A stretch of 53,037 bases of DNA, taken from positions 1-53,037 of the IMG/VR virus record IMGVR_UViG_3300011338_000290, one strand, 5' to 3'. The notes below the pieces were generated by a model. That model was given only the letters and a program-made list of their open reading frames with translations. It was not told the DNA's origin and did no database searches. This DNA comes from a virus. Its lineage: Duplodnaviria; Caudoviricetes. Shown here piece after piece: positions 1,862 to 52,532 of the stretch (position 1 is the stretch's first letter; every line of letters starts with the position of its first letter). The position numbers and the translations under genes were made by a program.

Positions 1862-3239
1862 CATCCTAACGGATTACAACTGGCCTGGTAAACATAAGCC
1901 TTTTGCACACCAAAAGCAAACTTCTGAGTTCTTAACGCTTAACCGCAAGGCTTTCTGCTTTAACGAGCAGGGCACAGGTAAAACGGCTAGCGTAATATGG
2001 GCAGCTGACTACCTATTGAACCTAGGCGTTATCCGTCGTGTGCTTGTAATTTGCCCCTTATCTATTATGAGGTCGGCATGGCAACAGGACTTATTTAAGT
2101 TTGCGATTCACCGCACATGCGATATAGCCCATGGTAGCCCAGTACAACGCAAAAAAATACTTGCCAACAATGCTGAGTTTGTCATTATTAACTTTGATGG
2201 GGTAGACATCGTCAAAGAAGAAGTCCTAAAAGGTGGGTTTGACCTAATCGTAGTAGATGAGGCAAGTGCCTACAAAAATGCACAAACAACCCGTTGGAAG
2301 ACGCTCAGAGACATAGCCGCCCAAGTTAAGGGTATGTGGATGCTTACTGGTACTCCAGCAGCACAATCCCCCGTAGACGCATTTGGCCTCGCTAAGCTTA
2401 TTAATCCTAATAACACCCCTAAATTTTATGGTCAGTTCCGTGACCAAGTTATGTTCAAGGTAGGTACTTATCGTTGGATACCAAAACCCCAAGCCCAATC
2501 CGTTGTACATAAAGTGTTACAACCTGCTATTCGGTTTGAGAAAGATCAATGCCTAGACCTACCTGATGTAACTTTTGTAGAACGGGATGCCCCGCTTACC
2601 CCCCAGCAAATAAAGTATTACAAAATACTCAAACAACAAATGTTGATACATGCAGATGGAGAGCAAGTTACTTCAGTAAACGCAGCTACCAACATCAACA
2701 AGCTACTGCAGATCTCTGGCGGTGCGGTATATACCGATACTAAAGAAGTCATACAGTTTGACGTATCCAACCGCTTACGGGTTATTGAAGAGGTTATTAA
2801 CGAAGCTTCACATAAGGTCCTGGTGTTTGTTCCATTTACTCATACTATAGAACTACTAAGAACTTATTTAACCGCAGCTAATATTACTTGTGAAGTCATT
2901 AATGGGCAAGTGCCTGTAAATAAAAGGCACGACATAATCAAAGACTTCCAAGAGACCGATAACACTAGGGTCTTGATAATACAACCCCAAGCAGCATCTC
3001 ACGGGTTAACACTAACAGCTGCTAATGTAATCATTTGGTATGCTCCTGTGACTAGCGTGGAAACATACTTGCAAGCTAATGCACGTATTAACCGCCCGGG
3101 GCAGAAGAACCCCATGACCATTGTGCATATCAAAGGAAGTGAAGTAGAAGCAAAGCTATACAGAATGTTACAAAATAATATAGATAGCCACACAAAAATA
3201 ATTGACTTATATAGACAAGAAATTGAAGATATAGCTTGA
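1845..3239 (+). CDS. SNF2-family (SF2) helicase
   Basis: EQGTGKT Walker A, DEAS, LTGTP, HGLTLT, QANARINRPGQ; start moved from 1713 to ATG 1845 to avoid a long overlap with the HNH gene. Confidence 0.9.
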   Translation: MQARNSILTDYNWPGKHKPFAHQKQTSEFLTLNRKAFCFNEQGTGKTASVIWAADYLLNLGVIRRVLVICPLSIMRSAWQQDLFKFAIHRTCDIAHGSPVQRKKILANNAEFVIINFDGVDIVKEEVLKGGFDLIVVDEASAYKNAQTTRWKTLRDIAAQVKGMWMLTGTPAAQSPVDAFGLAKLINPNNTPKFYGQFRDQVMFKVGTYRWIPKPQAQSVVHKVLQPAIRFEKDQCLDLPDVTFVERDAPLTPQQIKYYKILKQQMLIHADGEQVTSVNAATNINKLLQISGGAVYTDTKEVIQFDVSNRLRVIEEVINEASHKVLVFVPFTHTIELLRTYLTAANITCEVINGQVPVNKRHDIIKDFQETDNTRVLIIQPQAASHGLTLTAANVIIWYAPVTSVETYLQANARINRPGQKNPMTIVHIKGSEVEAKLYRMLQNNIDSHTKIIDLYRQEIEDIA

Positions 3240-3263
3240 CATTGTCAAAGTCATTGGTATACT
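3236..3263 (+). promoter_or_regulatory. Sigma70-type promoter with palindrome over the -35
   Basis: TTGACA-16-TATACT with TGn extended -10; TTGACATTGTCAA palindrome at 3236-3248. Confidence 0.75.
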
Positions 3264-3291: not shown

Positions 3292-3699
3292 ATGAGTGAT
3301 GTAGAAGTTATAGCAACAGACAAGCTTGCCGAGATTTATATAAAGATTAGAGACAAGCGAGCTGAGCTAAAGGAGAAGTTCGAGCAACAAGATGAAGAGC
3401 TCAAGGCTCAACAAGACTTGCTTGCAGAAAAAATGCTTGACGTATGTCGTGATAACAATGCTGACAGCATCAAGACACCAGCAGGGACAATTATTCGTAA
3501 AGTGGATACACGGTACTGGACGACTGATTGGGATTCTATGTATCAGTTCATACAAGAACATGATGCCTACCCCCTGCTCGAGAAAAGATTGCATCAAACC
3601 AATCTTAAGCAGTTTCTCGAAGAGAATCCAAATCTGTTACCTGCTGGTTTACAAGCAGACAGTAAATACACCGTGGTCGTTAGAAGGAGCAAAGCATGA
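3292..3699 (+). CDS. Conserved phage replication-module protein (coiled-coil N-terminus)
   Basis: Strong RBS GAAGGAG; coiled coil followed by KTPAGT...DWDSMYQFI...LLEKR pattern. Confidence 0.7.
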   Translation: MSDVEVIATDKLAEIYIKIRDKRAELKEKFEQQDEELKAQQDLLAEKMLDVCRDNNADSIKTPAGTIIRKVDTRYWTTDWDSMYQFIQEHDAYPLLEKRLHQTNLKQFLEENPNLLPAGLQADSKYTVVVRRSKA

Positions 3700-4573: not shown

Positions 4574-4810
4574 ATGAGCTACGGCTATAGTGCTAAAACT
4601 ATAGAGCTTAACAAGAAAGCTGGTAATACTAGGCTTGGGGTTGCGCTGGGTAGAGCTGCAATAAAAAAGGGTGTATCGGTTGCTGATATAGCAGAGATGT
4701 TAAATGTTAGTCGGCAGACGGTATACAACTGGTTTATTGGGGCATACGATCCTAAGCCGGAGCTATCTAAAAGTATCACCAAGCTTATAGCTAATAGACT
4801 TAGTAAGTAA
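4574..4810 (+). CDS. Cro/CI-type helix-turn-helix DNA-binding protein
   Basis: SVADIAEMLNVSRQTVYNWFIG HTH. Confidence 0.85.
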   Translation: MSYGYSAKTIELNKKAGNTRLGVALGRAAIKKGVSVADIAEMLNVSRQTVYNWFIGAYDPKPELSKSITKLIANRLSK

Positions 4811-4878: not shown

Positions 4879-7719
4879 ATGGCAAATATAGACCTACTAA
4901 ACAGAGTGCAAAGCCCCAATGGGTGGCTGACCGTGCTCGGCTTAAAAGGTAAATCTGCTATACAAGAGCTTGTTCAAACACGAGAAGAATTCGATAAGCA
5001 CGTAGAAGACTTTCTGTCTAAGGGCAGAGATGTTTATTTTGGTGTCGCTAAGTTTGAGACCGACTTAAACCGCAAGAAAGAGAATGTAAAAGACCTCAAA
5101 GCATTTTGGCTTGACTTGGATTGTGGTGAAGCAAAAGCAGAAGTAAATCCAAAAACAAACCGCCCCGATGGTTATATTGACCAAGTAGCAGGTCTTCAAG
5201 CTCTACAAGATTTCTGCAAATTAATCGGATTACCCAAGCCTTTACTTGTTAATTCAGGTAGGGGCATCCATGCGTACTGGCCTCTTACTAAACCTATTAC
5301 TCGGGAAGAATGGGAACCAGTTGCTAATCGTTTGAACGAACTATGCGTATTGCATAACCTTTATGTCGATGCAAGTGTATTTGAGATAGCCCGAGTGCTT
5401 AGAGTGCCCGGAACATTAAACTTTAAAGATAATCCACCTAAACCAGTAGAAGTAATTTCAGATGCACCCGATGTAGATTACGAGGCATTTAAGAACCTTT
5501 TGGGTGTTAAAGAAGCACCAAAGAAACCTACTGCACCCAAAGAGTTAAGTGAGTTACAAAAAGCCATGGCTGCTAATACCGTATCTCGGTTTAGCAAAAT
5601 TATGATTCGCAGTGCAAATGGCGAAGGGTGCGCACAATTACTGTATCAGTATCAAAATCAAGAGTCTGTATCCGAACCTATGTGGTTCAATGCGTTATCC
5701 ATTGCACACCGATGCGTGGACAGAGAGACTGCAATCCATAAGATTTCAGAGAATCACCCTGAATATTCACCCGAGAATACGGAGGAAAAAGCAAGCCATA
5801 CAGCGTTTGCTCAGCGTTGCAGTACGTTTGAGAAAAATAACCCAGGTGGTTGTGAAGGTTGCCAATGGAAGGGACGCATCGGTTCTCCTATTGCATTAGG
5901 CAGAGAAATAGTTAAAGCAGAAGATACAGAAGTCCACGACACACAAGAGATAGAAGATGCGGTTACATACAAAATACCTTCTTTCCCGTTCCCATACTTC
6001 CGTGGGAAGAACGGTGGCATCTACATCACTATTAAAGATGAAGAGGAATCAGAACCAATTTGTGTATACGAACACGATTTGTATGTTGTAAAGCGTATGC
6101 ACGATCCAGACCCTGCGGTTGGAGAACTTGTATTACTACGTTTGCATTTACCTAAAGACGGTGTGCGGGAGTTTACGATTCCGCTTTCTACCGTAGCAGT
6201 AAAAGAAAGATTACGTGAAGCGTTGTCAACAAAAGGCGTCGCTGGGATGCCAAAGCAGATGGATCAGTTGATGGCGTTTTTAATGTTATTTATTAAAGAG
6301 TTGCAATATAAAGGAAGGGCAGAATTAATGAGGACACAATTTGGCTGGGTGGATAAGAACAGCAAGTTTATTATTGGCGATAGAGAGATTAGCAAAGACG
6401 GCACATTCCACAGCCCACCTTCTGCAAACACAAGGCAGTTCACCGAAGTTATGCACCCCATGGGTACGCTAGAGAAATGGAAGGAAGTGTTTAATCTGTA
6501 TGGCGCCCCTGGATTAGAACCCCATGCGTTTGCTGCGCTTACTGCGTTTGGCGCGCCGCTTCTTAAGTTTACTGGTCATAGCGGAGCAATCATAAACCTG
6601 ATTCACAAAGAGTCAGGCACAGGTAAATCTACTGCTTTGTATATGTGTAATAGCGTGTACGGACACCCTGATAGGCTAGCTGGAATTTGGAAAGACACCC
6701 TAGCCGCCAAGATGTTGCATATAGGCATTATGAATAACCTGCCGTTTACGATTGATGAGATTACCAACATTAGCCCTGCCGAGTTTTCTACGCTGGCTTA
6801 TAGCATGTCACAAGGTCGTGGTGCTAATAGGTCTAGGTCAGATAAAAACGAGATGCGTATTAACAACACCACTTGGCAGACCATATCGTTGGCTAGTTCA
6901 AACGCTAGTTTCTACGAGAAGTTAGGGGTGCACAAGAACAGTCCGGATGGTGAGAGCATGCGCCTATTAGAGTATCAGATACATCCAAGCAATATTATCC
7001 CTGTACATGTGGCTAAGGAGATGTTCGACCACCAACTTAAAGAAAATTATGGGCATGCTGGGGACATCTATTGCAGTTACTTAGTTAATAACTTAGAAGA
7101 TACGGTCAGCAACTTGTTGGCTATCCAGCAGAAGATTGATAAAGAGATGCGCCTAACCAGCAAAGAGCGTTTTTGGTCTGCTGCTATTGCTTGTAATATT
7201 ACAGGCGGTTTGGTTGCCCGTATGCTTGGGTTGCATGACTACGATATGAAGGCTATTTATGCTTGGTCTATGCAGATGCTTTCCACAGTACGGCAAGACA
7301 TCGCACCTCCAGCTAATAACGCCGCAGCTATTATTGGTGACTACATTAACCGTAATATTCAAAATATGTTGGTTGTAAACAACGAAGTAGACAAGCGTAC
7401 TAATATGCACTCGGCACCCGTACAGGAGCCAAGAGGCGAGCTAAGGATACGCTACGAACCCGATACTAAGATGATGTACATCGTAGCCAAAGACTTTAAA
7501 AAGGATTGTGTGGAGTCACAAGCCCCATACAAAGAGACTCTTAACGAGCTAAAAGCTCGAGGTGTTTACACAAAAGCCGATACTAAGCAGATGTCCAAAG
7601 GCATGCGTGTTACATCTCCGGGGGTGCATGCATTGTTTTTTGACTGCTCTGTGCCTGATTTTATTGACATGGATGCGGTCGTAGCGCCGATTATCGAAAA
7701 TGTTAGTAGAGAAGATTAG
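4879..7719 (+). CDS. Primase-helicase (AEP/RepB-like primase fused to DUF927-type helicase)
   Basis: WLDLDC, SGRGIHAYW, RVLRVPGT primase motifs; Cys cluster; ESGTGKST Walker A and TIDE Walker B. Confidence 0.85.
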   Translation: MANIDLLNRVQSPNGWLTVLGLKGKSAIQELVQTREEFDKHVEDFLSKGRDVYFGVAKFETDLNRKKENVKDLKAFWLDLDCGEAKAEVNPKTNRPDGYIDQVAGLQALQDFCKLIGLPKPLLVNSGRGIHAYWPLTKPITREEWEPVANRLNELCVLHNLYVDASVFEIARVLRVPGTLNFKDNPPKPVEVISDAPDVDYEAFKNLLGVKEAPKKPTAPKELSELQKAMAANTVSRFSKIMIRSANGEGCAQLLYQYQNQESVSEPMWFNALSIAHRCVDRETAIHKISENHPEYSPENTEEKASHTAFAQRCSTFEKNNPGGCEGCQWKGRIGSPIALGREIVKAEDTEVHDTQEIEDAVTYKIPSFPFPYFRGKNGGIYITIKDEEESEPICVYEHDLYVVKRMHDPDPAVGELVLLRLHLPKDGVREFTIPLSTVAVKERLREALSTKGVAGMPKQMDQLMAFLMLFIKELQYKGRAELMRTQFGWVDKNSKFIIGDREISKDGTFHSPPSANTRQFTEVMHPMGTLEKWKEVFNLYGAPGLEPHAFAALTAFGAPLLKFTGHSGAIINLIHKESGTGKSTALYMCNSVYGHPDRLAGIWKDTLAAKMLHIGIMNNLPFTIDEITNISPAEFSTLAYSMSQGRGANRSRSDKNEMRINNTTWQTISLASSNASFYEKLGVHKNSPDGESMRLLEYQIHPSNIIPVHVAKEMFDHQLKENYGHAGDIYCSYLVNNLEDTVSNLLAIQQKIDKEMRLTSKERFWSAAIACNITGGLVARMLGLHDYDMKAIYAWSMQMLSTVRQDIAPPANNAAAIIGDYINRNIQNMLVVNNEVDKRTNMHSAPVQEPRGELRIRYEPDTKMMYIVAKDFKKDCVESQAPYKETLNELKARGVYTKADTKQMSKGMRVTSPGVHALFFDCSVPDFIDMDAVVAPIIENVSRED

Positions 7720-7894
7720 TTATAACGTCAACTGGAAAAACTTTAAGACAGGGTATTCAATCTTCATACCTTGCCTTGATCCTGACGTTGCTAAGAAAGA
7801 CATTCTGCGTGTTACAAAAAGACTGAAGATGGAAGTTTTGTTTAAAGTAGTAATAGAAGAAGGTGTAAAAGGTTTACGCATCTGGAGAATTTAA
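7700..7894 (+). CDS. Small conserved phage protein
   Basis: SIFIPCLD...GLRIWRI pattern; overlaps end of primase gene. Confidence 0.7.
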   Translation: MLVEKISYNVNWKNFKTGYSIFIPCLDPDVAKKDILRVTKRLKMEVLFKVVIEEGVKGLRIWRI

Positions 7895-28832: not shown

Positions 28833-30086
28833 TTATCTGACCGCCATGAACCAAAACTGAACAGGGTCTTCAATAGTTGCTGAATCGTTAAGCATCGTAT
28901 AAAAACGAGCAGAAGTCGTAAATTGATTATATGTGCCTGAATTGTTTAAACACATCAATACAGGTCGTTGTGTTGCACTATTTCTGCGACCCATTCCTAA
29001 CATAGTGTAATTTGCATCAGGGAATGTAAACGAATAATTGACTGTGTAATCACCAGTTCCGTTTCTAGTTACAGAAGAAACCCCACCTGAAGCATTAATA
29101 GTTCCACTAGCACCAGCAAAATTTACCCATGCACGACATCCGTATGCAGTAGCTACTGAGCCGTAACCTGAGTTGAATTGAAGAAGTCCAGCAGAGGTAA
29201 TACGAGCTTGCTCTGTGTTATTTGTTCCAAACACTAAGCCATTGTTATCTCGGTTATACATATAAGCAAGACCATCAGTAGCTTGAGCAAAATCAACACC
29301 AGTTGAAGAACCACTGCTTACACGAACACTTGTAAATCCAGCATTTTTTACTTGCAGTCCACCACCAGCCGCAAATGTAGGACTACTAGTACCAATACCT
29401 ACATTACCACTAGAGTCGATACGCATTGCCTCTGCACCGCCCTCAGAGAACGCTATTGTGTCCGCAGCGGGGAAAAAGATACCTGTGTTGGTATCGCCGT
29501 TGTTTGTAATTGAGGGGGTAGATGCAGAACCGTCGGCGAAGTTAATCGTTACGTCATTAGCGATGTTTGCGCTTGAGACTGCGCCTGCTGTGTTTGGTAT
29601 GGCATTTAATACGCTGGACACCAAGAAAGACTCAACCGTTAATAAGTTACCCGCAGATGCGCCTGTGGCTAGGACTACTGTAGTGCCGTTTGTTGCTGTG
29701 TAGTCGGCTGAACCCAGCAGTACGCCATTGAGATAGACGTTAATAAATCCTACGGTGTAGCTTGGCGGTGTAAATGTAGTCTGGCTAGCAGTTGCTGTGA
29801 ACTCGGTAACGGTTCTGTATGCTGTGGTTGTTACGCCTGTTACTGGGATACCAAGATAACGGCATGAGATGTTACCTGTACCGCTCGGAGGCGCAGCTGA
29901 GAATGTAATCGTGTTACCAACAACACCATATGTGCTTGGGTCTTGAAGAACGCCAGATACCGCTACAAGAACGTTAGTAACCCCAGCAGGAGCCACCGAC
30001 ATTGTAAATGCCGTAGTAGAGCCGTTACCAGAAAATTGGTCGGTAACAAAAGCCGATTGGTATATGGGGTTTCCTATAATTGCCAA
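28833..30086 (-). CDS. Tail fibre protein
   Basis: TTG start with GGAG RBS; GNGSTTAFT, MRIDSSGNVGIGT, CRAWVNF...RNGTGDYTV modules. Confidence 0.8.
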   Translation of the reverse strand: MAIIGNPIYQSAFVTDQFSGNGSTTAFTMSVAPAGVTNVLVAVSGVLQDPSTYGVVGNTITFSAAPPSGTGNISCRYLGIPVTGVTTTAYRTVTEFTATASQTTFTPPSYTVGFINVYLNGVLLGSADYTATNGTTVVLATGASAGNLLTVESFLVSSVLNAIPNTAGAVSSANIANDVTINFADGSASTPSITNNGDTNTGIFFPAADTIAFSEGGAEAMRIDSSGNVGIGTSSPTFAAGGGLQVKNAGFTSVRVSSGSSTGVDFAQATDGLAYMYNRDNNGLVFGTNNTEQARITSAGLLQFNSGYGSVATAYGCRAWVNFAGASGTINASGGVSSVTRNGTGDYTVNYSFTFPDANYTMLGMGRRNSATQRPVLMCLNNSGTYNQFTTSARFYTMLNDSATIEDPVQFWFMAVR

Positions 30087-30523
30087 AATAAACTCCGATA
30101 CGCTTTAGTTTTGCGGAAGTTTTTGCAAGTTATGCACATACGAGTCTTTCTATCCGTATTAGGGTTGAGCTTCCAATAAGTATTCTTTTCAGTAAACTCA
30201 TGCCCGTGTTTACAATACGTAACCAGTCGTTGTGGGTTCAATACCCCCCGCAATCCACGCTGAACATTTATCTTATGCGTAACTGCTTCTAAATGCTCTG
30301 GGTTAACGCATGCTGGGTTTCTACATAAATGGTCTAAGTGCATATTATCTGGTATTTGACCCTTAAATGCCACATATGCTAGGCGATGCGCATACATAGA
30401 TTTGCCTTGATATGGTGTTCTACCATAGCCAGCCGTAGTTAGCTTGCGATTCCATACCCAGCAACCATTATCTGCTGGTGTAGAGCAAGACTTTATGCGG
30501 TCAGGTAAAGATGCGTATGGCAT
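30074..30523 (-). CDS. Free-standing HNH homing endonuclease
   Basis: GCWVW, YAHRLAY, LDHLCRNPACVNPEHLE, CKHGHEF; inserted among tail genes. Confidence 0.9.
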   Translation of the reverse strand: MPYASLPDRIKSCSTPADNGCWVWNRKLTTAGYGRTPYQGKSMYAHRLAYVAFKGQIPDNMHLDHLCRNPACVNPEHLEAVTHKINVQRGLRGVLNPQRLVTYCKHGHEFTEKNTYWKLNPNTDRKTRMCITCKNFRKTKAYRSLFWQL

Positions 30524-37323: not shown

Positions 37324-37667
37324 ATCTTCCTATACGGTTTTACTTTTGCTTTTACTGTTTTTGGCTGGGGCACGAACTGTTTTCCCTGTGCTTTTCCTTG
37401 CCGTTTTGCCCGTGTTGTTGCTGCGTACTCTTGTGGGCTTAACGCTTGTATTGCTCTTTTTGGCAGGTATCGCTCCCCCGTCTCGGACGACTTCTTCCCT
37501 GACTTGGTTGTCCACTCTTGGTCGCCCCAAGCTTTTAAAGAACGTTGCGATGCGGCTAAACCACCCCCCGCCATCTTCTTCTTTTTGCTGGCGCAATGGG
37601 CTTTCTCCGAGAACCCCTTTGGACTCTCGCAGTTGATCGACTTTTTGCGCTTGTCTGACCATTTCAC
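37320..37667 (-). CDS. Small basic protein (C-half of a DUF5872-like module)
   Basis: SLKAWGDQEWTTKSG...ERYLPK...QFVPQP; family name from recall. Confidence 0.6.
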   Translation of the reverse strand: MKWSDKRKKSINCESPKGFSEKAHCASKKKKMAGGGLAASQRSLKAWGDQEWTTKSGKKSSETGERYLPKRAIQALSPQEYAATTRAKRQGKAQGKQFVPQPKTVKAKVKPYRKI

Positions 37668-37936
37668 TTGTAGCCCCCGCCTTTTTCTTTATAGCGTTTA
37701 GCTAAAAGTTGAGCTTTCCGAGCAGACCATTGACCCGCTGCTGTACCATGCGTAGCCGATGCTTTAATACGATTAAATAAAGCCTTACGCATACCAGGTT
37801 TCGTATAGTTACCAGCTTTGTTAACCGTACCGCCCTCTTTATATTGTGTAAAGTCCGTATCATCTCTGCGAGCTTTTTTCTTACCACCAGGTATTTTAGA
37901 AGGATTAATGGCACCCATGCCACGACTTGGTCTCAT
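37664..37936 (-). CDS. Small basic protein (N-half of a DUF5872-like module)
   Basis: NYTKPGMR...GQWSARKAQLLAKRYKEKGGGY; family name from recall. Confidence 0.6.
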   Translation of the reverse strand: MRPSRGMGAINPSKIPGGKKKARRDDTDFTQYKEGGTVNKAGNYTKPGMRKALFNRIKASATHGTAAGQWSARKAQLLAKRYKEKGGGYK

Positions 37937-48916: not shown

Positions 48917-48934
48917 ATACCCCCCGGGGGGTAT
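48917..48934. repeat. Perfect 18-bp palindrome
   Basis: ATACCCCCCGGGGGGTAT. Confidence 0.9.
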
Positions 48935-48965: not shown

Positions 48966-48981
48966 TGTTCCACGTGGAACA
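48966..48981. promoter_or_regulatory. parS: Chromosomal-type parS site
   Basis: TGTTCCACGTGGAACA, perfect 16-bp palindrome matching the bacterial ParB-binding consensus. Confidence 0.8.
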
Positions 48982-49202
48982 AAACTTGTGGATATTTAAG
49001 TAGGGGGAGGGGGGTTAAGCTACGGTAGACGTATGAGAACGGGGAAAGTGAGGGTGAAATTTTAAAGTTGTGTATCTCTTGTGCAAATTAGTGAGTATAG
49101 GTGGACTAACAATCCTTTTTTTAATTTTGGGGTGGTGGGGTCGCATGGCTCGCCACGTCCTAACATTGTTAGGGGTAGGGGGTATTTATAGTTTCCATAG
49201 AG

Positions 49203-49232
49203 TTGAAAATGTAACACAAAATGCTGTATAAT
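49203..49232 (+). promoter_or_regulatory. Early sigma70 promoter
   Basis: TTGAAA-18-TATAAT. Confidence 0.7.
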
Positions 49233-49240
49233 AAACTCAA

Positions 49241-49360
49241 GCAAGCGAAATCTTGCGAGGGCTTCAAGGGTTGAACTAGGTGGGGATCGAATCCCACGTG
49301 ACTTGCGAAGTGACCGCTTTGACCTAGGGGGTGACAGCCCTAGCGAGTGCGAAGTCAGCC
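49241..49360 (+). ncRNA. Candidate structured leader/small RNA
   Basis: Five consecutive short hairpins between the promoter and the first early ORF. Confidence 0.45.
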
Positions 49361-49397
49361 AGTAGTTTTCTTTTAACTTTCTTTCTAAGGAATAATC

Positions 49398-49925
49398 ATG
49401 GATCAAGTATTTGATGTTGCTGATTTAATTACTGCTATCGAGCAAGCCCGTGTTAATGTTGCTGAGGGTTTGCGTGGCGCTTATGGCGCTAAGGTTGCAT
49501 ATGCTGGTTTGCTCAATCAAAAATGGGCAAGTTTTGACTGGTTTGAACTTAATCACAATGATTCAAGTGATGAGGGCAAAGCAGTAAGGAAAGAGAAAGA
49601 GGCTTTTTACGAAGTCTTAAAGGGTGAGCAACACTCAAACCCCCACAAGATTTGGGGTGACATTCGTAAATACGCTAAGACCGATCGCTATGGCAAGCCA
49701 GTAGTTGATGGCGAGCAAGGCGAGGGTGGCGAGGGTGGCGAGCAAGGCAGTGACAACGCCAAGCATAATCGTTCACCCCAGTTGCGTAACCTTGAGGAAC
49801 TTACCGCATTATTCAAGTTCAATCGTCGCCAAGATTCATTGAGTGACGAACTCAAGCAATGCCAAGCATATATCGCCAAGGCATTGGAATCGTTAGGTGT
49901 CAATGTAACAATGATTGGCGACTAA
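49398..49925 (+). CDS. Early protein of unknown function, paralog A
   Basis: AAGGA RBS; clear paralog of 51243-51758. Confidence 0.85.
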   Translation: MDQVFDVADLITAIEQARVNVAEGLRGAYGAKVAYAGLLNQKWASFDWFELNHNDSSDEGKAVRKEKEAFYEVLKGEQHSNPHKIWGDIRKYAKTDRYGKPVVDGEQGEGGEGGEQGSDNAKHNRSPQLRNLEELTALFKFNRRQDSLSDELKQCQAYIAKALESLGVNVTMIGD

Positions 49926-49986
49926 CATTGTTAGGGGGGTGCAGTTTGCCCCCCTCTTTCTTTCTCTTACTTTAATAGGTGCAATT

Positions 49987-50199
49987 ATGATTAAGCCAAT
50001 ATTTACCCATGACTGTGATACCTGTAAATTTTTAGGTCATGTTTTAACAGTAAATGGTAATGCTGATGTTTACTACTCATGTGACTCAAGAGAAAATTAT
50101 CGTAACCTGATTTTTAGGTATAGCGATGAACCCGCAGATTACAGTCATGTCGGAACTGAACGAACTAAGTATTTATTTGATTTTGAATTTTGTTTATAA
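49987..50199 (+). CDS. Small early protein
   Basis: AGGT RBS; HDCDTCKFLG and RYSDEPADY motifs. Confidence 0.7.
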   Translation: MIKPIFTHDCDTCKFLGHVLTVNGNADVYYSCDSRENYRNLIFRYSDEPADYSHVGTERTKYLFDFEFCL

Positions 50200-50224
50200 G
50201 CCACCCATGCGGTGGCTTTTTTTT
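50198..50224 (+). terminator. Rho-independent terminator
   Basis: AAGCCACC-CATGC-GGTGGCTT then T-tract. Confidence 0.88.
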
Positions 50225-50404
50225 GCCCTTGCCCTAACAATGTTAGGGCTTTTTTGTTTCCATCATTTTCCAAAAATGATAGTTCTTAGAAGGGTGGTAG
50301 TCCTAACCCGATTTTTTCCAAGTTTTACCTCGTTGGAAATGATAGTTCTTAGAAGAGTGGTAGCCCATAAGGCAGTCCTAACAATGTTAGGCTTCTTGCA
50401 AAAC

Positions 50405-50780
50405 TTTTCTTATAATAGAAGCCTTTGAAATCAAGGACTTGCGTGTATTATAAGAAAACCAAAAACAAAATCTTACAATATAAAAGTCTTTGTAATCAAG
50501 GACTTGCAGGGGTTTTTGGGGGTATTATAAGAAAACTGAGAAAATTGAGTGAGCAGGGTCTCGAACGAGGTCTTCACGCAGTGCATTTCTTACATTAGCA
50601 AAGGCAAATCCTCTGGGGGTATATAATTTTTTTTATTTTCTTATTTTCTTATATTATCTATTTTTCTCCTCTCCAAGCCTTATACCTATTCACTTTTATA
50701 TTATAAGAAATATCGTAAGAAAAACCTCCACTTTTCTTATATTACCCCCATTTTTCTTATTTTGATTTCTTATATTAAGT
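50405..50780. other. AT-rich block with IHF-consensus sites and TTTCTTAT repeats (origin- or packaging-like)
   Basis: AATCAAGGACTTG at 50429-50441 and 50494-50506; about ten TTTCTTA(T)/(A)TAAGAAA copies in both orientations. Confidence 0.55.
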
Positions 50781-50791
50781 TTCCACGCACC

Positions 50792-50820
50792 TTGAATATT
50801 CTCTTATTTTGTGTTATAAT
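50792..50820 (+). promoter_or_regulatory. Early sigma70 promoter
   Basis: TTGAAT-17-TATAAT with extended -10 TG. Confidence 0.85.
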
Positions 50821-50850
50821 GTAATCTCAATACAACGAAAGGAATATAAA

Positions 50851-51048
50851 ATGCAAATGACAGACAAAATAAAAAAAGTAATCGAGTGGGGTTTTCAGTA
50901 TGACTCTGAGAAAAATGTGTTCTTCCGTTTTGCACCTGAAAATTATGTCGAAGTGTGGAGGGACGATATTTCTTCTGATTGGATTGTGTTTTATTTAGAT
51001 GGACAACCAACGCATGATTACTTCATCAAATGGGAGTTGTTTGCCTAA
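50851..51048 (+). CDS. Small early protein
   Basis: AAAGGA RBS; start set at MQMTDK, downstream of the promoter. Confidence 0.7.
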   Translation: MQMTDKIKKVIEWGFQYDSEKNVFFRFAPENYVEVWRDDISSDWIVFYLDGQPTHDYFIKWELFA

Positions 51049-51109
51049 ATGGGGAGAGCCTAACAATGTTAGGTTCATTCCTAGAAATTAAAAAATCTAG
51101 ACAGAATAC

Positions 51110-51138
51110 TTGATTTATCCCTTATTTTGTGTTATACT
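51110..51138 (+). promoter_or_regulatory. Early sigma70 promoter
   Basis: TTGATT-17-TATACT with extended -10 TG; shares CTTATTTTGTGTTATA with the 50792 promoter. Confidence 0.85.
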
Positions 51139-51242
51139 ATACTCATAGTAAAAAATAAGAAATGCAGTTGCAGTAGGAGTCAGTTAGGTTCTCCAACCAA
51201 CCTAACAATGTTAGGCAGTATCCAAAACAAGGAGTATTAAAC

Positions 51243-51758
51243 ATGGAATTTATCGCTAATCAAGATGTAGAAGTAATCGTATCCCAAAAGCGTCAAGGTG
51301 CAATTGACGCACAGGCTAGCACTTATGGTGCTAATGTGGAATACGCAGGGGCATTGAACTTGAAGTTCGAGTTCGATTGGTTCGAGTTGCAACACAACGA
51401 CAGTTCGGACGAAGGCAAGGCAGTCCGCAAAGAAAAGACCTTGTTCTTTGAAGGCTTGAAAGAAATCGGGCATTCCAACCCGTCCAAAGTTTGGAAAGAT
51501 GTGCGAGATTACGGCAGAGAAAACCGCTACGGCAAACCCGTTGTGCCTACCGCAGAAGGTGCAGATGGTGAGTCCGAGTCCGAAGGGGACGCAAAGCATA
51601 ATCGTTCCCCTGAGTTGCGGAACATGGAGGAGTTGCTAGCCCTCTATAAGTTCAACCGCAGACAGGAGTCCCTCTCCCCCAAGATCACCAAGGTGCAACA
51701 AAAGATTGGTGAAGCCTTGCAAGAGATGGGAGTTGATCTCCATATGATCGCAGACTAA
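51243..51758 (+). CDS. Early protein of unknown function, paralog B
   Basis: AAGGAG RBS; clear paralog of 49398-49925. Confidence 0.85.
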   Translation: MEFIANQDVEVIVSQKRQGAIDAQASTYGANVEYAGALNLKFEFDWFELQHNDSSDEGKAVRKEKTLFFEGLKEIGHSNPSKVWKDVRDYGRENRYGKPVVPTAEGADGESESEGDAKHNRSPELRNMEELLALYKFNRRQESLSPKITKVQQKIGEALQEMGVDLHMIAD

Positions 51759-51776
51759 TTCTGCCCAACCCCAACC

Positions 51777-51800
51777 AACCCTGCTACGGCAGGGTTTTTT
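51777..51800 (+). terminator. Rho-independent terminator
   Basis: AACCCTGC-TACG-GCAGGGTT then T-tract. Confidence 0.9.
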
Positions 51801-51941
51801 ATTTGCCCACGACCTAACAATGTTAGGTCAGACTTTTTGTCATTCGGCTCTCGCCGAAATGACAGTTCCGAGAAGGGTGGTAGCCCATGGGGAATTCCCT
51901 AAAAGTGCGTGGGAACGAGGGTTCAATTCTAGCCAAAAAAC

Positions 51942-51970
51942 TTGATCTGGTCAGTAATTTGTGTTATAAT
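51942..51970 (+). promoter_or_regulatory. Early sigma70 promoter
   Basis: TTGATC-17-TATAAT with extended -10 TG. Confidence 0.85.
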
Positions 51971-52055
51971 ATAAGATATATATGAGAATAAAGATTCGCC
52001 CTCATTTTATTTTTTGCAACCCCCTAACAATGTTAGGTCTAACAAGGAGAAGTGT

Positions 52056-52151
52056 ATGAAGTTTATGGATAGCGACATCTTTGCAGTTGCTTTAATTGTG
52101 TTCACAGTTTTGTTTGTGTTGGTTCATGTCATTTTGTATATAACTAAATAG
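52056..52151 (+). CDS. 31-aa single-pass membrane peptide (absent from ORF track)
   Basis: AAGGAG RBS; MKFMDSDIFAVALIVFTVLFVLVHVILYITK. Confidence 0.65.
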   Translation: MKFMDSDIFAVALIVFTVLFVLVHVILYITK

Positions 52152-52160
52152 GAGGTAGTC

Positions 52161-52313
52161 ATGCGTGTAATCGTTATTTTTGAATATAAGGGTATCCCTG
52201 CTGATGGTGAGCAGGCAGATCAAATTGTTGAGGTTGTCGGCAAGGCTTGCGAATCCATGGGTAATGAAGTGGGTGCAGGTGCTTGTTTTGTTGAAGATGT
52301 TGAGTGGGACTAA
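52161..52313 (+). CDS. 50-aa acidic early protein (absent from ORF track)
   Basis: GGAGGT RBS; MRVIVIFEYKG...VEDVEWD. Confidence 0.7.
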   Translation: MRVIVIFEYKGIPADGEQADQIVEVVGKACESMGNEVGAGACFVEDVEWD

Positions 52314-52328
52314 ACAGGAGACCTAACA

Positions 52329-52532
52329 ATGTTATATGGCTTTGATTGTGAATGTGGCTTGGAGATACCGATTGGCAGACTTGACCTAGGGTATACGACA
52401 TGCCTAAAGTGTGGCGACATTGAGGCAAAGCGTGTAAAGCATATTGTGCAAATCCCATATTCCAAGGGTGCGTATCAATATATCCACAACCCACAAGACT
52501 TATGTTTTACCAACCCAAAGAGGACAACATGA
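52329..52532 (+). CDS. Small zinc-finger early protein
   Basis: CECG...CLKCG; AGGAG RBS. Confidence 0.75.
   Translation: MLYGFDCECGLEIPIGRLDLGYTTCLKCGDIEAKRVKHIVQIPYSKGAYQYIHNPQDLCFTNPKRTT

Follow-up and report, generated by a model that had tools for sequence, protein, structure and literature searches.

The palindrome array and its locus

The window analyzed here, by which we mean the whole stretch of DNA under study, is the entire IMG/VR viral record IMGVR_UViG_3300011338_000290, a linear sequence of 53,037 bp with an estimated completeness of 84% and a G+C content of 43.9%. Our subject is an array of CCTAACAWTGTTAGG, a perfect 7-1-7 palindrome of 15 bp, in the early region of this virus. 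Rightward genes occupy the record from ~49.2 kb onward and resume at 1 to 7.7 kb, where they encode a PD-(D/E)XK exonuclease, an SNF2 helicase, a small helix-turn-helix (HTH) protein, and a DUF927 primase-helicase. The leftward structural block (7983-48797) encodes the large terminase, the portal, SU10-type adaptors, and a 2115-aa LPD39/DarB-like protein.

Scanning the window at ≤2 mismatches recovered nine matches to CCTAACAWTGTTAGG (seven exact, one with one mismatch, and one with two), all within 49159-52336 and none elsewhere, against a shuffle mean of 0.11 and with 0 of 100 shuffles reaching nine. The first-pass annotation of this DNA had reported nine copies (seven exact and two near-exact) in 3.2 kb and no others, which the scan and the shuffles confirm. 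The contexts it gave (terminators, the interval between promoter and ribosome-binding site [RBS], a stop codon, and a start codon) were all correct on rechecking. On sequence grounds, we regard it as about an even call that the palindromes form a double-stranded DNA operator array for a dimeric regulator of early transcription. The copies and the elements among which they lie are the following.

49159..49173: palindrome copy 1, exact, center T; lies in the gap between terS and the divergently oriented early genes, centered about -73 relative to the estimated start at the first rightward promoter
49203..49232, + strand: sigma-70-type promoter-like site, TTGAAA-18-TATAAT, 11/12; precedes the p175 gene
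49398..49925, + strand: p175, early protein, p171 family paralogue 1
49921..49935: palindrome copy 2, one mismatch (position 1); its TAA (positions 3-5) is the p175 stop codon; recurrent homology breakpoint
50198..50218, + strand: intrinsic-terminator-like hairpin followed by a T run; precedes the copy at 50233
50233..50247: palindrome copy 3, exact; its GC flanks and T run also give it a terminator score of its own (-12.3 kcal/mol), in tandem with the hairpin at 50198
50377..50391: palindrome copy 4, exact; begins a repeat-rich noncoding stretch
50792..50820, + strand: promoter-like site P1, TTGAAT-17-TATAAT with TG; serves the variable p65 cassette
51059..51073: palindrome copy 5, exact; after the p65 stop and upstream of P2, at the exact right edge of the p65 cassette indel
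51110..51138, + strand: promoter-like site P2, TTGATT-17-TATACT with TG
51201..51215: palindrome copy 6, exact; 28 nt ahead of the ATG of p171 (51243) in the P2 leader, center about +63 of P2
51243..51758, + strand: p171, early protein, paralogue 2
51777..51796, + strand: intrinsic-terminator-like hairpin after p171; precedes the copy at 51813
51813..51827: palindrome copy 7, exact; directly after the terminator and terminator-like with its flanks, -10.5 kcal/mol
51942..51970, + strand: promoter-like site P3, TTGATC-17-TATAAT with TG
52023..52037: palindrome copy 8, exact; center about +53 of the estimated P3 start, 19 nt before the ATG at 52056
52322..52336: palindrome copy 9, two mismatches (positions 14 and 15); the ATG at 52329 starts the open reading frame (ORF) 52329-52532; most recurrent homology breakpoint

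Three window promoters share TTGTGTTATAAT/TATACT and an extended -10 element, and promoter modules are repeated in the window (repeat families D5 and D9). No RNA polymerase family was matched among the window proteins, so the host polymerase presumably transcribes from the sigma-70-type promoters. The position of copy 49159 upstream of the first rightward promoter is conserved in the complete relative G001, and at about -73 this copy lies outside any rightward transcript.

Spread among related viruses

An exact-match scan found CCTAACAWTGTTAGG in at least 195 stretches of at least ~117 viral contigs, many of them with clusters; the contig figure is a manual count from the match list, and lone matches may be chance occurrences of a 15-mer in a very large collection. 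In the complete relatives, every copy at ≤1 mismatch lies in a single terS-to-replication block.

G001, 65 kb: 22 copies, at 57.4-65.2 kb and 0.8-4.1 kb (~12 kb)
G005, 62 kb: 12 copies, at 28.1-40.7 kb
G004, 63.6 kb: 7 copies, at 20.6-29.6 kb
G163, 63 kb: 9 copies, at 22.3-31.3 kb

A motif scan of phage genomes, which had been proposed as a check, keeps the copies of the window and of the complete relatives to one early/middle block. A profile of p171 recovered 28 loci with 31 to 97% identity to the window protein, and the motif is present at all 28, with one palindrome at or just past the end of the gene and usually a second one upstream. G001 is syntenic with the window across the whole noncoding architecture; the iteron-like repeat differs between the two (TATTATTAGAAAA in G001 versus TATTATAAGAAAA in the window), and the palindrome is identical in both. 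Neither its 13-mer nor its 15-mer was found in the literature searched by sequence. As a separate observation, a conserved AAA-type ATPase gene (L200 8491-9558 in G001, with counterparts in G002, G004, and G005) is missing from the incomplete window, and a one-mismatch palindrome, TCTAACATTGTTAGG, lies ~680 nt into this gene, at the same place in all four genomes.

The lineage is one of virulent freshwater podophages (podovirus-type). By large terminase, the closest cultured phages (49 to 57% identity) are Phage DSL-LC04, HTVC023P-type pelagiphages, and Planktothrix/Synechococcus phages, and both the early region and the p171 protein are absent from the cultured phages searched, including these nearest terminase relatives. 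Public runs containing the early region are riverine and freshwater metagenomes, together with runs carrying a coded organism label. A search for tyrosine integrase (PF00589) matched none of five complete relatives and 14 of 14 control genomes, which makes a role of the array in lysogenic immunity unlikely. To our knowledge, almost nothing is known about the timing of gene expression in abundant uncultured freshwater phages.

Sister phages with other palindromes

The HTH protein (4574-4810) belongs to a family present in at least 572 viral stretches, a much broader range than that of the motif. Among 16 HTH-bearing records searched for the motif, out of 80 loci kept from these stretches, CCTAACAWTGTTAGG at ≤1 mismatch is missing from eight, including the complete genomes G158 and G162, and complete G161 has a single one-mismatch copy. 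These three are true relatives, with 67 to 74% identity in the large terminase and 51 to 55% in the primase, and each carries a palindrome of its own: GTGACWWGTCAC in G158, (TTA)GTGAC-WW-GTCAC(TAA), nine copies; GTTACATTGTAAC in G162, GTTACA-T-TGTAAC, eight copies; and TAACA-NN-TGTTA in G161, 13 copies. All of them lie in the equivalent terS-to-replication block and none outside it. In G158, one promoter has palindromes at -62 and +41 and another has one at +58, and those of G161 stand at +49, +50, -79, and -85 of promoters; in G162, a consensus scan placed no palindrome near its two predicted promoters. To judge by these sequences, placement is kept across the sister clades while the palindrome word changes. 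The G+C content also differs by motif class, at 40 to 47% for genomes with CCTAACAWTGTTAGG and 49.5, 51, and 54% for the other classes.

Placement around promoters

A simple consensus scan of 14 related sequences gave 31 strong promoter-like sites; at 24 of these, a palindrome is centered +38 to +69 from the estimated start, and nine promoter-palindrome distances fall at -64 to -87, although the scanned loci are homologous, so these counts are not independent. Copies also recur after terminators and at gene junctions. The possibility that the copies are activator sites was rejected, as no -10 element is found at a fixed distance downstream of the window copies.

Duplex site, RNA hairpin, or junction repeat

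The invariant part of the element is an 11-bp core, TAACAWTGTTA, usually flanked by CC/GG. Relative to transcription, its center base is A in 125 cases, T in 101, and G in two, and hence the element has no polarity. Among 202 unique oriented copies at ≤2 mismatches (111 exact, 54 with one, and 37 with two), the mismatches are nearly confined to positions 1, 2, 14, and 15, where all substitution types occur with no wobble preference and where double changes are not compensatory. In the window and its related contigs, no two of the 251 unique exact copies share the same flanks, and pairing between the flanks exceeds expectation at ±1 only (96 versus 74 ± 6.7), with no excess of complementarity at ±2 to ±8. 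Furthermore, the hairpin of the bare exact 15-mer is weak (-5.4 to -5.5 kcal/mol) and reaches -10 to -12 kcal/mol only with fortuitous flanks, and copies with degenerate ends would leave an A/U-rich stem of just 4 to 5 bp. The lack of polarity, the mismatch spectrum, the absence of stem extension, and the weak hairpin together point to a palindrome that is read as a dyad-symmetric duplex rather than as a folded strand. The flank extensions listed in the first-pass annotation (GC..GC, GA..TC, and GAG..TTC) are present in the window; they are local, as the pairing excess in the 251 copies is restricted to ±1, and the hint of hairpin formation drawn from them fails on these flanks and on the mismatch spectrum.

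These properties also bear on the idea of an RNA-level element, namely, a transcribed hairpin acting as a terminator or its backup, as a processing or stability element, or as the target of a translational repressor near the RBS, which we consider unlikely. It would account for the copies at 50233 and 51813, which fold stably with their flanks and are followed by T runs, for the 4 of 9 window copies that sit 0 to 52 nt before a start codon, and for the G161 copies, most of which are TAA-CAA-ATG-TTA stop/start junctions with a spacer of 1 or 2 nt. However, an intrinsic terminator has a G+C-rich stem and then a T run, and the other seven window copies are missing a T run or a stable stem. No covariation is seen, the stem being invariant while its outer pair degenerates without wobble bias. 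In addition, the G158 core (5 bp with a 2-nt spacer) is unable to form a normal loop, some copies lie upstream of promoters, the first rightward promoter included, and Rfam returned nothing relevant. A different alternative, to which we likewise assign a low probability, is a pure junction repeat, that is, the conserved edge of mobile promoter/terminator cassettes similar to the promoter-early stem-loop (PeSL) modules, kept by recombination with no dedicated binder. Comparing the window with 12 relatives by blastn gave 51 homology-breakpoint clusters, of which 13 lie ≤20 nt from a palindrome (12% expected, p = 0.006), and four of the five most recurrent breakpoints, at 52319, 50216, 49926, and 52040, are at copies. 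The relatives differ in having or lacking p70, p65, and p50, with borders at palindromes; DNA-run variants skip from 50763 to 51059 and from 52150 to 52315, and 51059 and 52315-52323 are endpoints of variants in which a cassette is present or absent. The repeated promoter modules fit this explanation as well, and PeSLs are described as promoter and stem-loop cassettes mediating such indels (PMC2839356, PMC4122927). On the contrary, 15 bp is very short for homologous recombination, 38 of the 51 clusters are away from copies, and the enrichment is modest when intergenic DNA alone is counted (13 of 32 clusters versus 24% expected). Moreover, sequence-specific selection is indicated both by a motif that stays exact while the proteins diverge to 31% identity and by its orderly replacement with other perfect palindromes in sister clades. 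What the breakpoint pattern does indicate is that the palindromes double as preferred seams of early-gene exchange, since these identical short sequences at cassette borders make the sites preferred junctions for the gain, loss, and swap of small early genes.

Candidate binders

The first-pass annotation had proposed the Cro-like HTH protein or the paralogous early proteins as binders. An operator array bound by the former (4574-4810) is, in our view, very unlikely. No other clear HTH protein was found. This one exceeds the Pfam cutoffs for HTH_23 and HTH_3, is basic (net charge of +8), and is present in all five motif-bearing relatives tested, with a conserved recognition helix. This helix, VSRQTVYNWF, is nevertheless identical in the window, in G162 with GTTACATTGTAAC, and in G158 with GTGACWWGTCAC, and its persistence across three palindrome classes argues against the protein as the specificity determinant, a role for which we rejected it. 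The breadth of its family, half of whose searched records lack CCTAACAWTGTTAGG, weighs the same way, as does a different perfect palindrome, TTGACATTGTCAA, which overlies at 3236-3248 the -35 element of a promoter-like site before the p135-p291-HTH-primase operon. TTGACATTGTCAA recurs near the HTH gene in many relatives, though not in G158, G161, or G162. Its location over the -35 of the protein's own operon and its recurrence near the gene suggest that TTGACATTGTCAA is likely the autoregulatory site of the Cro-like protein.

The case of the paralogous early proteins is mixed. The p171-family gene is the predicted first-expressed gene across the whole clade, and the motif accompanies every p171 locus. 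The two paralogues share 53% identity and belong to a family of 268 metagenomic relatives, with distant members in G162, which has another motif. On the other hand, they are acidic (pI 5.1 to 5.8) and resemble no known DNA binder: the AlphaFold model of the family is all-helical (predicted local distance difference test score of 79) with a disordered acidic linker, searches of Pfam, PHROG, NCBIfam, and PDB sequences gave no match to p171 or p175, Foldseek gave none to the model at E ≤ 0.001, and Atlas scores were below 0.9. A conserved 64-aa protein (7700-7894) was rejected as the binder because it does not covary with the motif class.

The binder could thus be, at roughly even odds, another phage protein or a host factor; the G+C differences between motif classes would fit the latter, and the former could be a shared phage family with specificity residues not visible in comparison. 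A protein able to read the core is known from MtvA, a MazE-like antitoxin of the Pseudomonas plasmid pPAD8, which binds TAACATTGTTA in gel-shift assays (PMC11826091). MtvA is a small dimeric protein, and its operator contains an 11-bp core identical to that of the phage; that operator stands alone, as an autoregulatory site within a toxin-antitoxin promoter, and the scanned phage ORFs have no MazE/AbrB match. By this analogy, MtvA serves as proof of principle only, and the identity may be a coincidence.

Host repeats and genome entry

A scan of bacterial and archaeal genomes gave at least 120 stretches, of which 80 were examined and nine loci opened. Among the matches listed are scattered singles across phyla, several in ordinary terminator loops, and one copy-rich alphaproteobacterial metagenome-assembled genome, G006, with 46 copies at ≤1 mismatch (e.g., L325-L339 and L490-L497). 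These copies are mostly paired, 80 to 113 bp apart, with TTAAC-N6-TTAAC flanks; the flanking DNA has 55 to 60% G+C, and in the eight loci examined the pairs are intergenic between convergent, divergent, and tandem genes alike. Repetitive extragenic palindromic (REP) elements and bacterial interspersed mosaic elements are likewise dispersed in the intergenic DNA of cellular genomes regardless of gene orientation. Given this indifference to orientation, the G006 repeat looks like a lineage-specific element of the REP type or of the type of miniature inverted-repeat transposable elements. The motif was found in 0 of 150 other genomes of the G006 family, and G006 itself has no p171 relative, only weak HTH matches, and no DNA match to the window. 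We read the sharing of the motif as coincidence, and some host may still carry such a repeat.

The first-pass annotation had also suggested that the palindromes could be signals for stepwise entry or for protection on the DNA that is injected first, an idea that we consider barely tenable. The array does adjoin terS and cover the earliest genes. However, in four relatives labeled with direct terminal repeats, labels that may reflect circular assembly only, the arrays are mid-record (28.1-40.7 kb of 62 kb in G005, 22.3-31.3 kb in G163, 26.0-34.9 kb in G158, and 44.9-54.8 kb in G162). Furthermore, the arrays span 9 to 12 kb, and the copy positions follow promoters and gene junctions.

Other features of the region

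Several neighboring elements are recorded here in their own right. ORF 52329-52532 encodes a 67-aa protein with a CxC...CxxC pattern and no Pfam match, with relatives at 27 motif loci; it resembles TraR/DksA-type zinc fingers, which bind RNA polymerase. A ~43-nt motif, AATGAYAGTTCYNAGAAGRGTGGTAGYCC..., occurs three times (50273-50315, 50336-50378, and 51856-51898), just after a palindrome and each time preceded by its own small hairpin. It is conserved in G001 (L200 ~3350-3450 and 4690-4720), has no Rfam match, and by its appearance is either a structured small RNA or a site for a protein. The noncoding stretch 50415-50790 (~400 bp) contains TTTGWAATCAAGGACTTGC twice and many iteron-like words (TATTATAAGAAAA / TTCTTATATTA), and it may be an origin or hold sites for a phage-specific factor. 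Contigs of an RNA-labeled run are deepest at bins 50504-50787, which by itself proves nothing; the three RNA-labeled runs consist of contigs only, two are probably DNA, and transcript ends are not readable from them.

In the gap between terS and the early region lies a perfect 16-bp palindrome, TGTTCCACGTGGAACA (48966-48981), which is not conserved in G001 and which we take to resemble the bacterial parS consensus. Between terS and the early region there is also ATACCCCCCGGGGGGTAT with an A/T run (48917-48934), conserved in G001 and with a minus-strand terminator score. Elsewhere, an HNH_3 homing-type endonuclease gene lies at 30074-30523 within the tail/structural block, and no tRNA was found in the window.

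Proposed role of the array

In the mechanism that we favor, one dimeric sequence-specific protein would recognize the duplex core TAACA-W-TGTTA, and its sites would mark the early/middle block transcribed by the host RNA polymerase. Most strong early promoters would have a site in the leader, about +40 to +60 from the start, with some sites ~60 to 90 bp upstream of a promoter and others after terminators and at junctions. A bound protein would then stop or weaken initiation and elongation throughout the block, resulting in early shut-off or tuning. The binder would be a host factor or a phage protein, though probably not the Cro-like HTH protein, and the same sites would serve as junctions for the gain, loss, and swap of small early genes. 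The earlier suggestion of a stoperator-like shut-off of early genes therefore holds in part. A protein-read site array is the best-supported explanation because the element is dyad-symmetric, sharply delimited, recurrent around promoters and junctions, and restricted to the early/middle block; a strict stoperator does not agree with sites that are symmetric, unoriented, and confined to one block.

It is important to consider that several observations weigh against an operator array. Promoter-bracketing pairs are spaced 112 to 292 bp apart with no helical phasing, so looping is not supported, and the promoter statistics are consensus matches in related, non-independent loci. The half-site spacer in G161 measures 2 nt in most copies and 1 nt in two, a variation that a rigid dimer tolerates poorly and a hairpin loop easily. 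The copies at 50233 and 51813 resemble genuine terminators and are plausible backups, and many copies lie 0 to 30 nt from an RBS, which is compatible with a role at the RNA level. In addition, a phyletic search of eight genomes for a class-specific protein family gave none except one small basic late ORF (37664-37936), present in four of the five genomes with CCTAACAWTGTTAGG. Lastly, the ribbon-helix-helix, AbrB/MazE, and ParB families had no match, with 0 matches to ParB-type Pfam entries, among the ORFs scanned in the window, itself 84% complete, and 10 early ORFs of G001.

A bolder and rather tentative extension of the operator array is a clade-specific "address code," in which TAACA-W-TGTTA, GTTACA-T-TGTAAC, and GTGAC-WW-GTCAC around every early promoter and junction would be read by a small dimer with switched specificity. 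If true, phages that never lysogenize would have immunity-like specificity groups, which would govern early shut-off, interference during coinfection, and the choice of partners for early-gene cassette exchange. The array is, in any case, a sharply defined and experimentally tractable control element, an 11- to 15-bp site invariant in more than 100 contigs. The palindrome is a direct handle for finding its regulator, it could be used to delimit the early regions of metagenomic phage contigs on the basis of sequence alone, and the array makes it possible to ask whether regulatory repeats double as seams for the exchange of early "ORFan" genes.

Comparison with known systems

Palindromic operators repeated across a mobile genome are known from the inverted repeats of the phiC31 repressor and the OB sites of RK2 KorB, and the gal operators OE and OI bracket a promoter. 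The respective binders are the c repressor, the ParB-type KorB, and GalR, whereas no homologue of these was recognized in the phage and no helical phasing suggests looping. In arrays of the ParB/KorB type, the ParB-family protein is encoded on the same element. Nut sites, matS, and parS offer further resemblances. The nut/boxB hairpin is a strand-specific RNA read via its loop and present in few copies downstream of early promoters; in contrast, the phage element has no polarity, occurs in 9 to 22 copies, and lies in some cases upstream of promoters.

The L5-type stoperators of cluster A mycobacteriophages come closer. They recur at promoters and in the short gaps between genes, have been proposed to halt both initiation and elongation, and are asymmetric sites whose orientation follows transcription (PMC9283540). 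In the phage array, one short site is likewise repeated many times, at promoters and in short gaps between genes, and a similar effect on initiation and elongation is proposed. However, stoperators are asymmetric 13-mers that are bound by a monomer, serve as sites of the immunity repressor, and are spread genome-wide in temperate phages, whereas the palindromes are dyad-symmetric, have no polarity, and are restricted to one block in a lineage with no integrase in five complete relatives and no repressor recognized.

The PeSLs of T4-type phages are repeat modules of a strong sigma-70-type promoter and a stem-loop terminator, located between small variable early genes, that bound indels and replacements (PMC2839356, PMC4122927). 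The phage region has strong promoter-like sites of the sigma-70 type and terminator-like hairpins, and its indels and replacements are bounded by repeats. The repeated unit differs, being a separate 15-bp palindrome that is not a promoter and, in seven of nine copies, not a terminator; promoter- and terminator-like sites flank the copies, and the palindrome is a third element, terminator-like in two of the nine. It is also invariant within the clade and replaced in sister clades, and it belongs to a podovirus-type phage rather than to a T4-type myovirus. The element is therefore most like stoperator/operator arrays and PeSL cassettes, yet it departs from the defining features of both.

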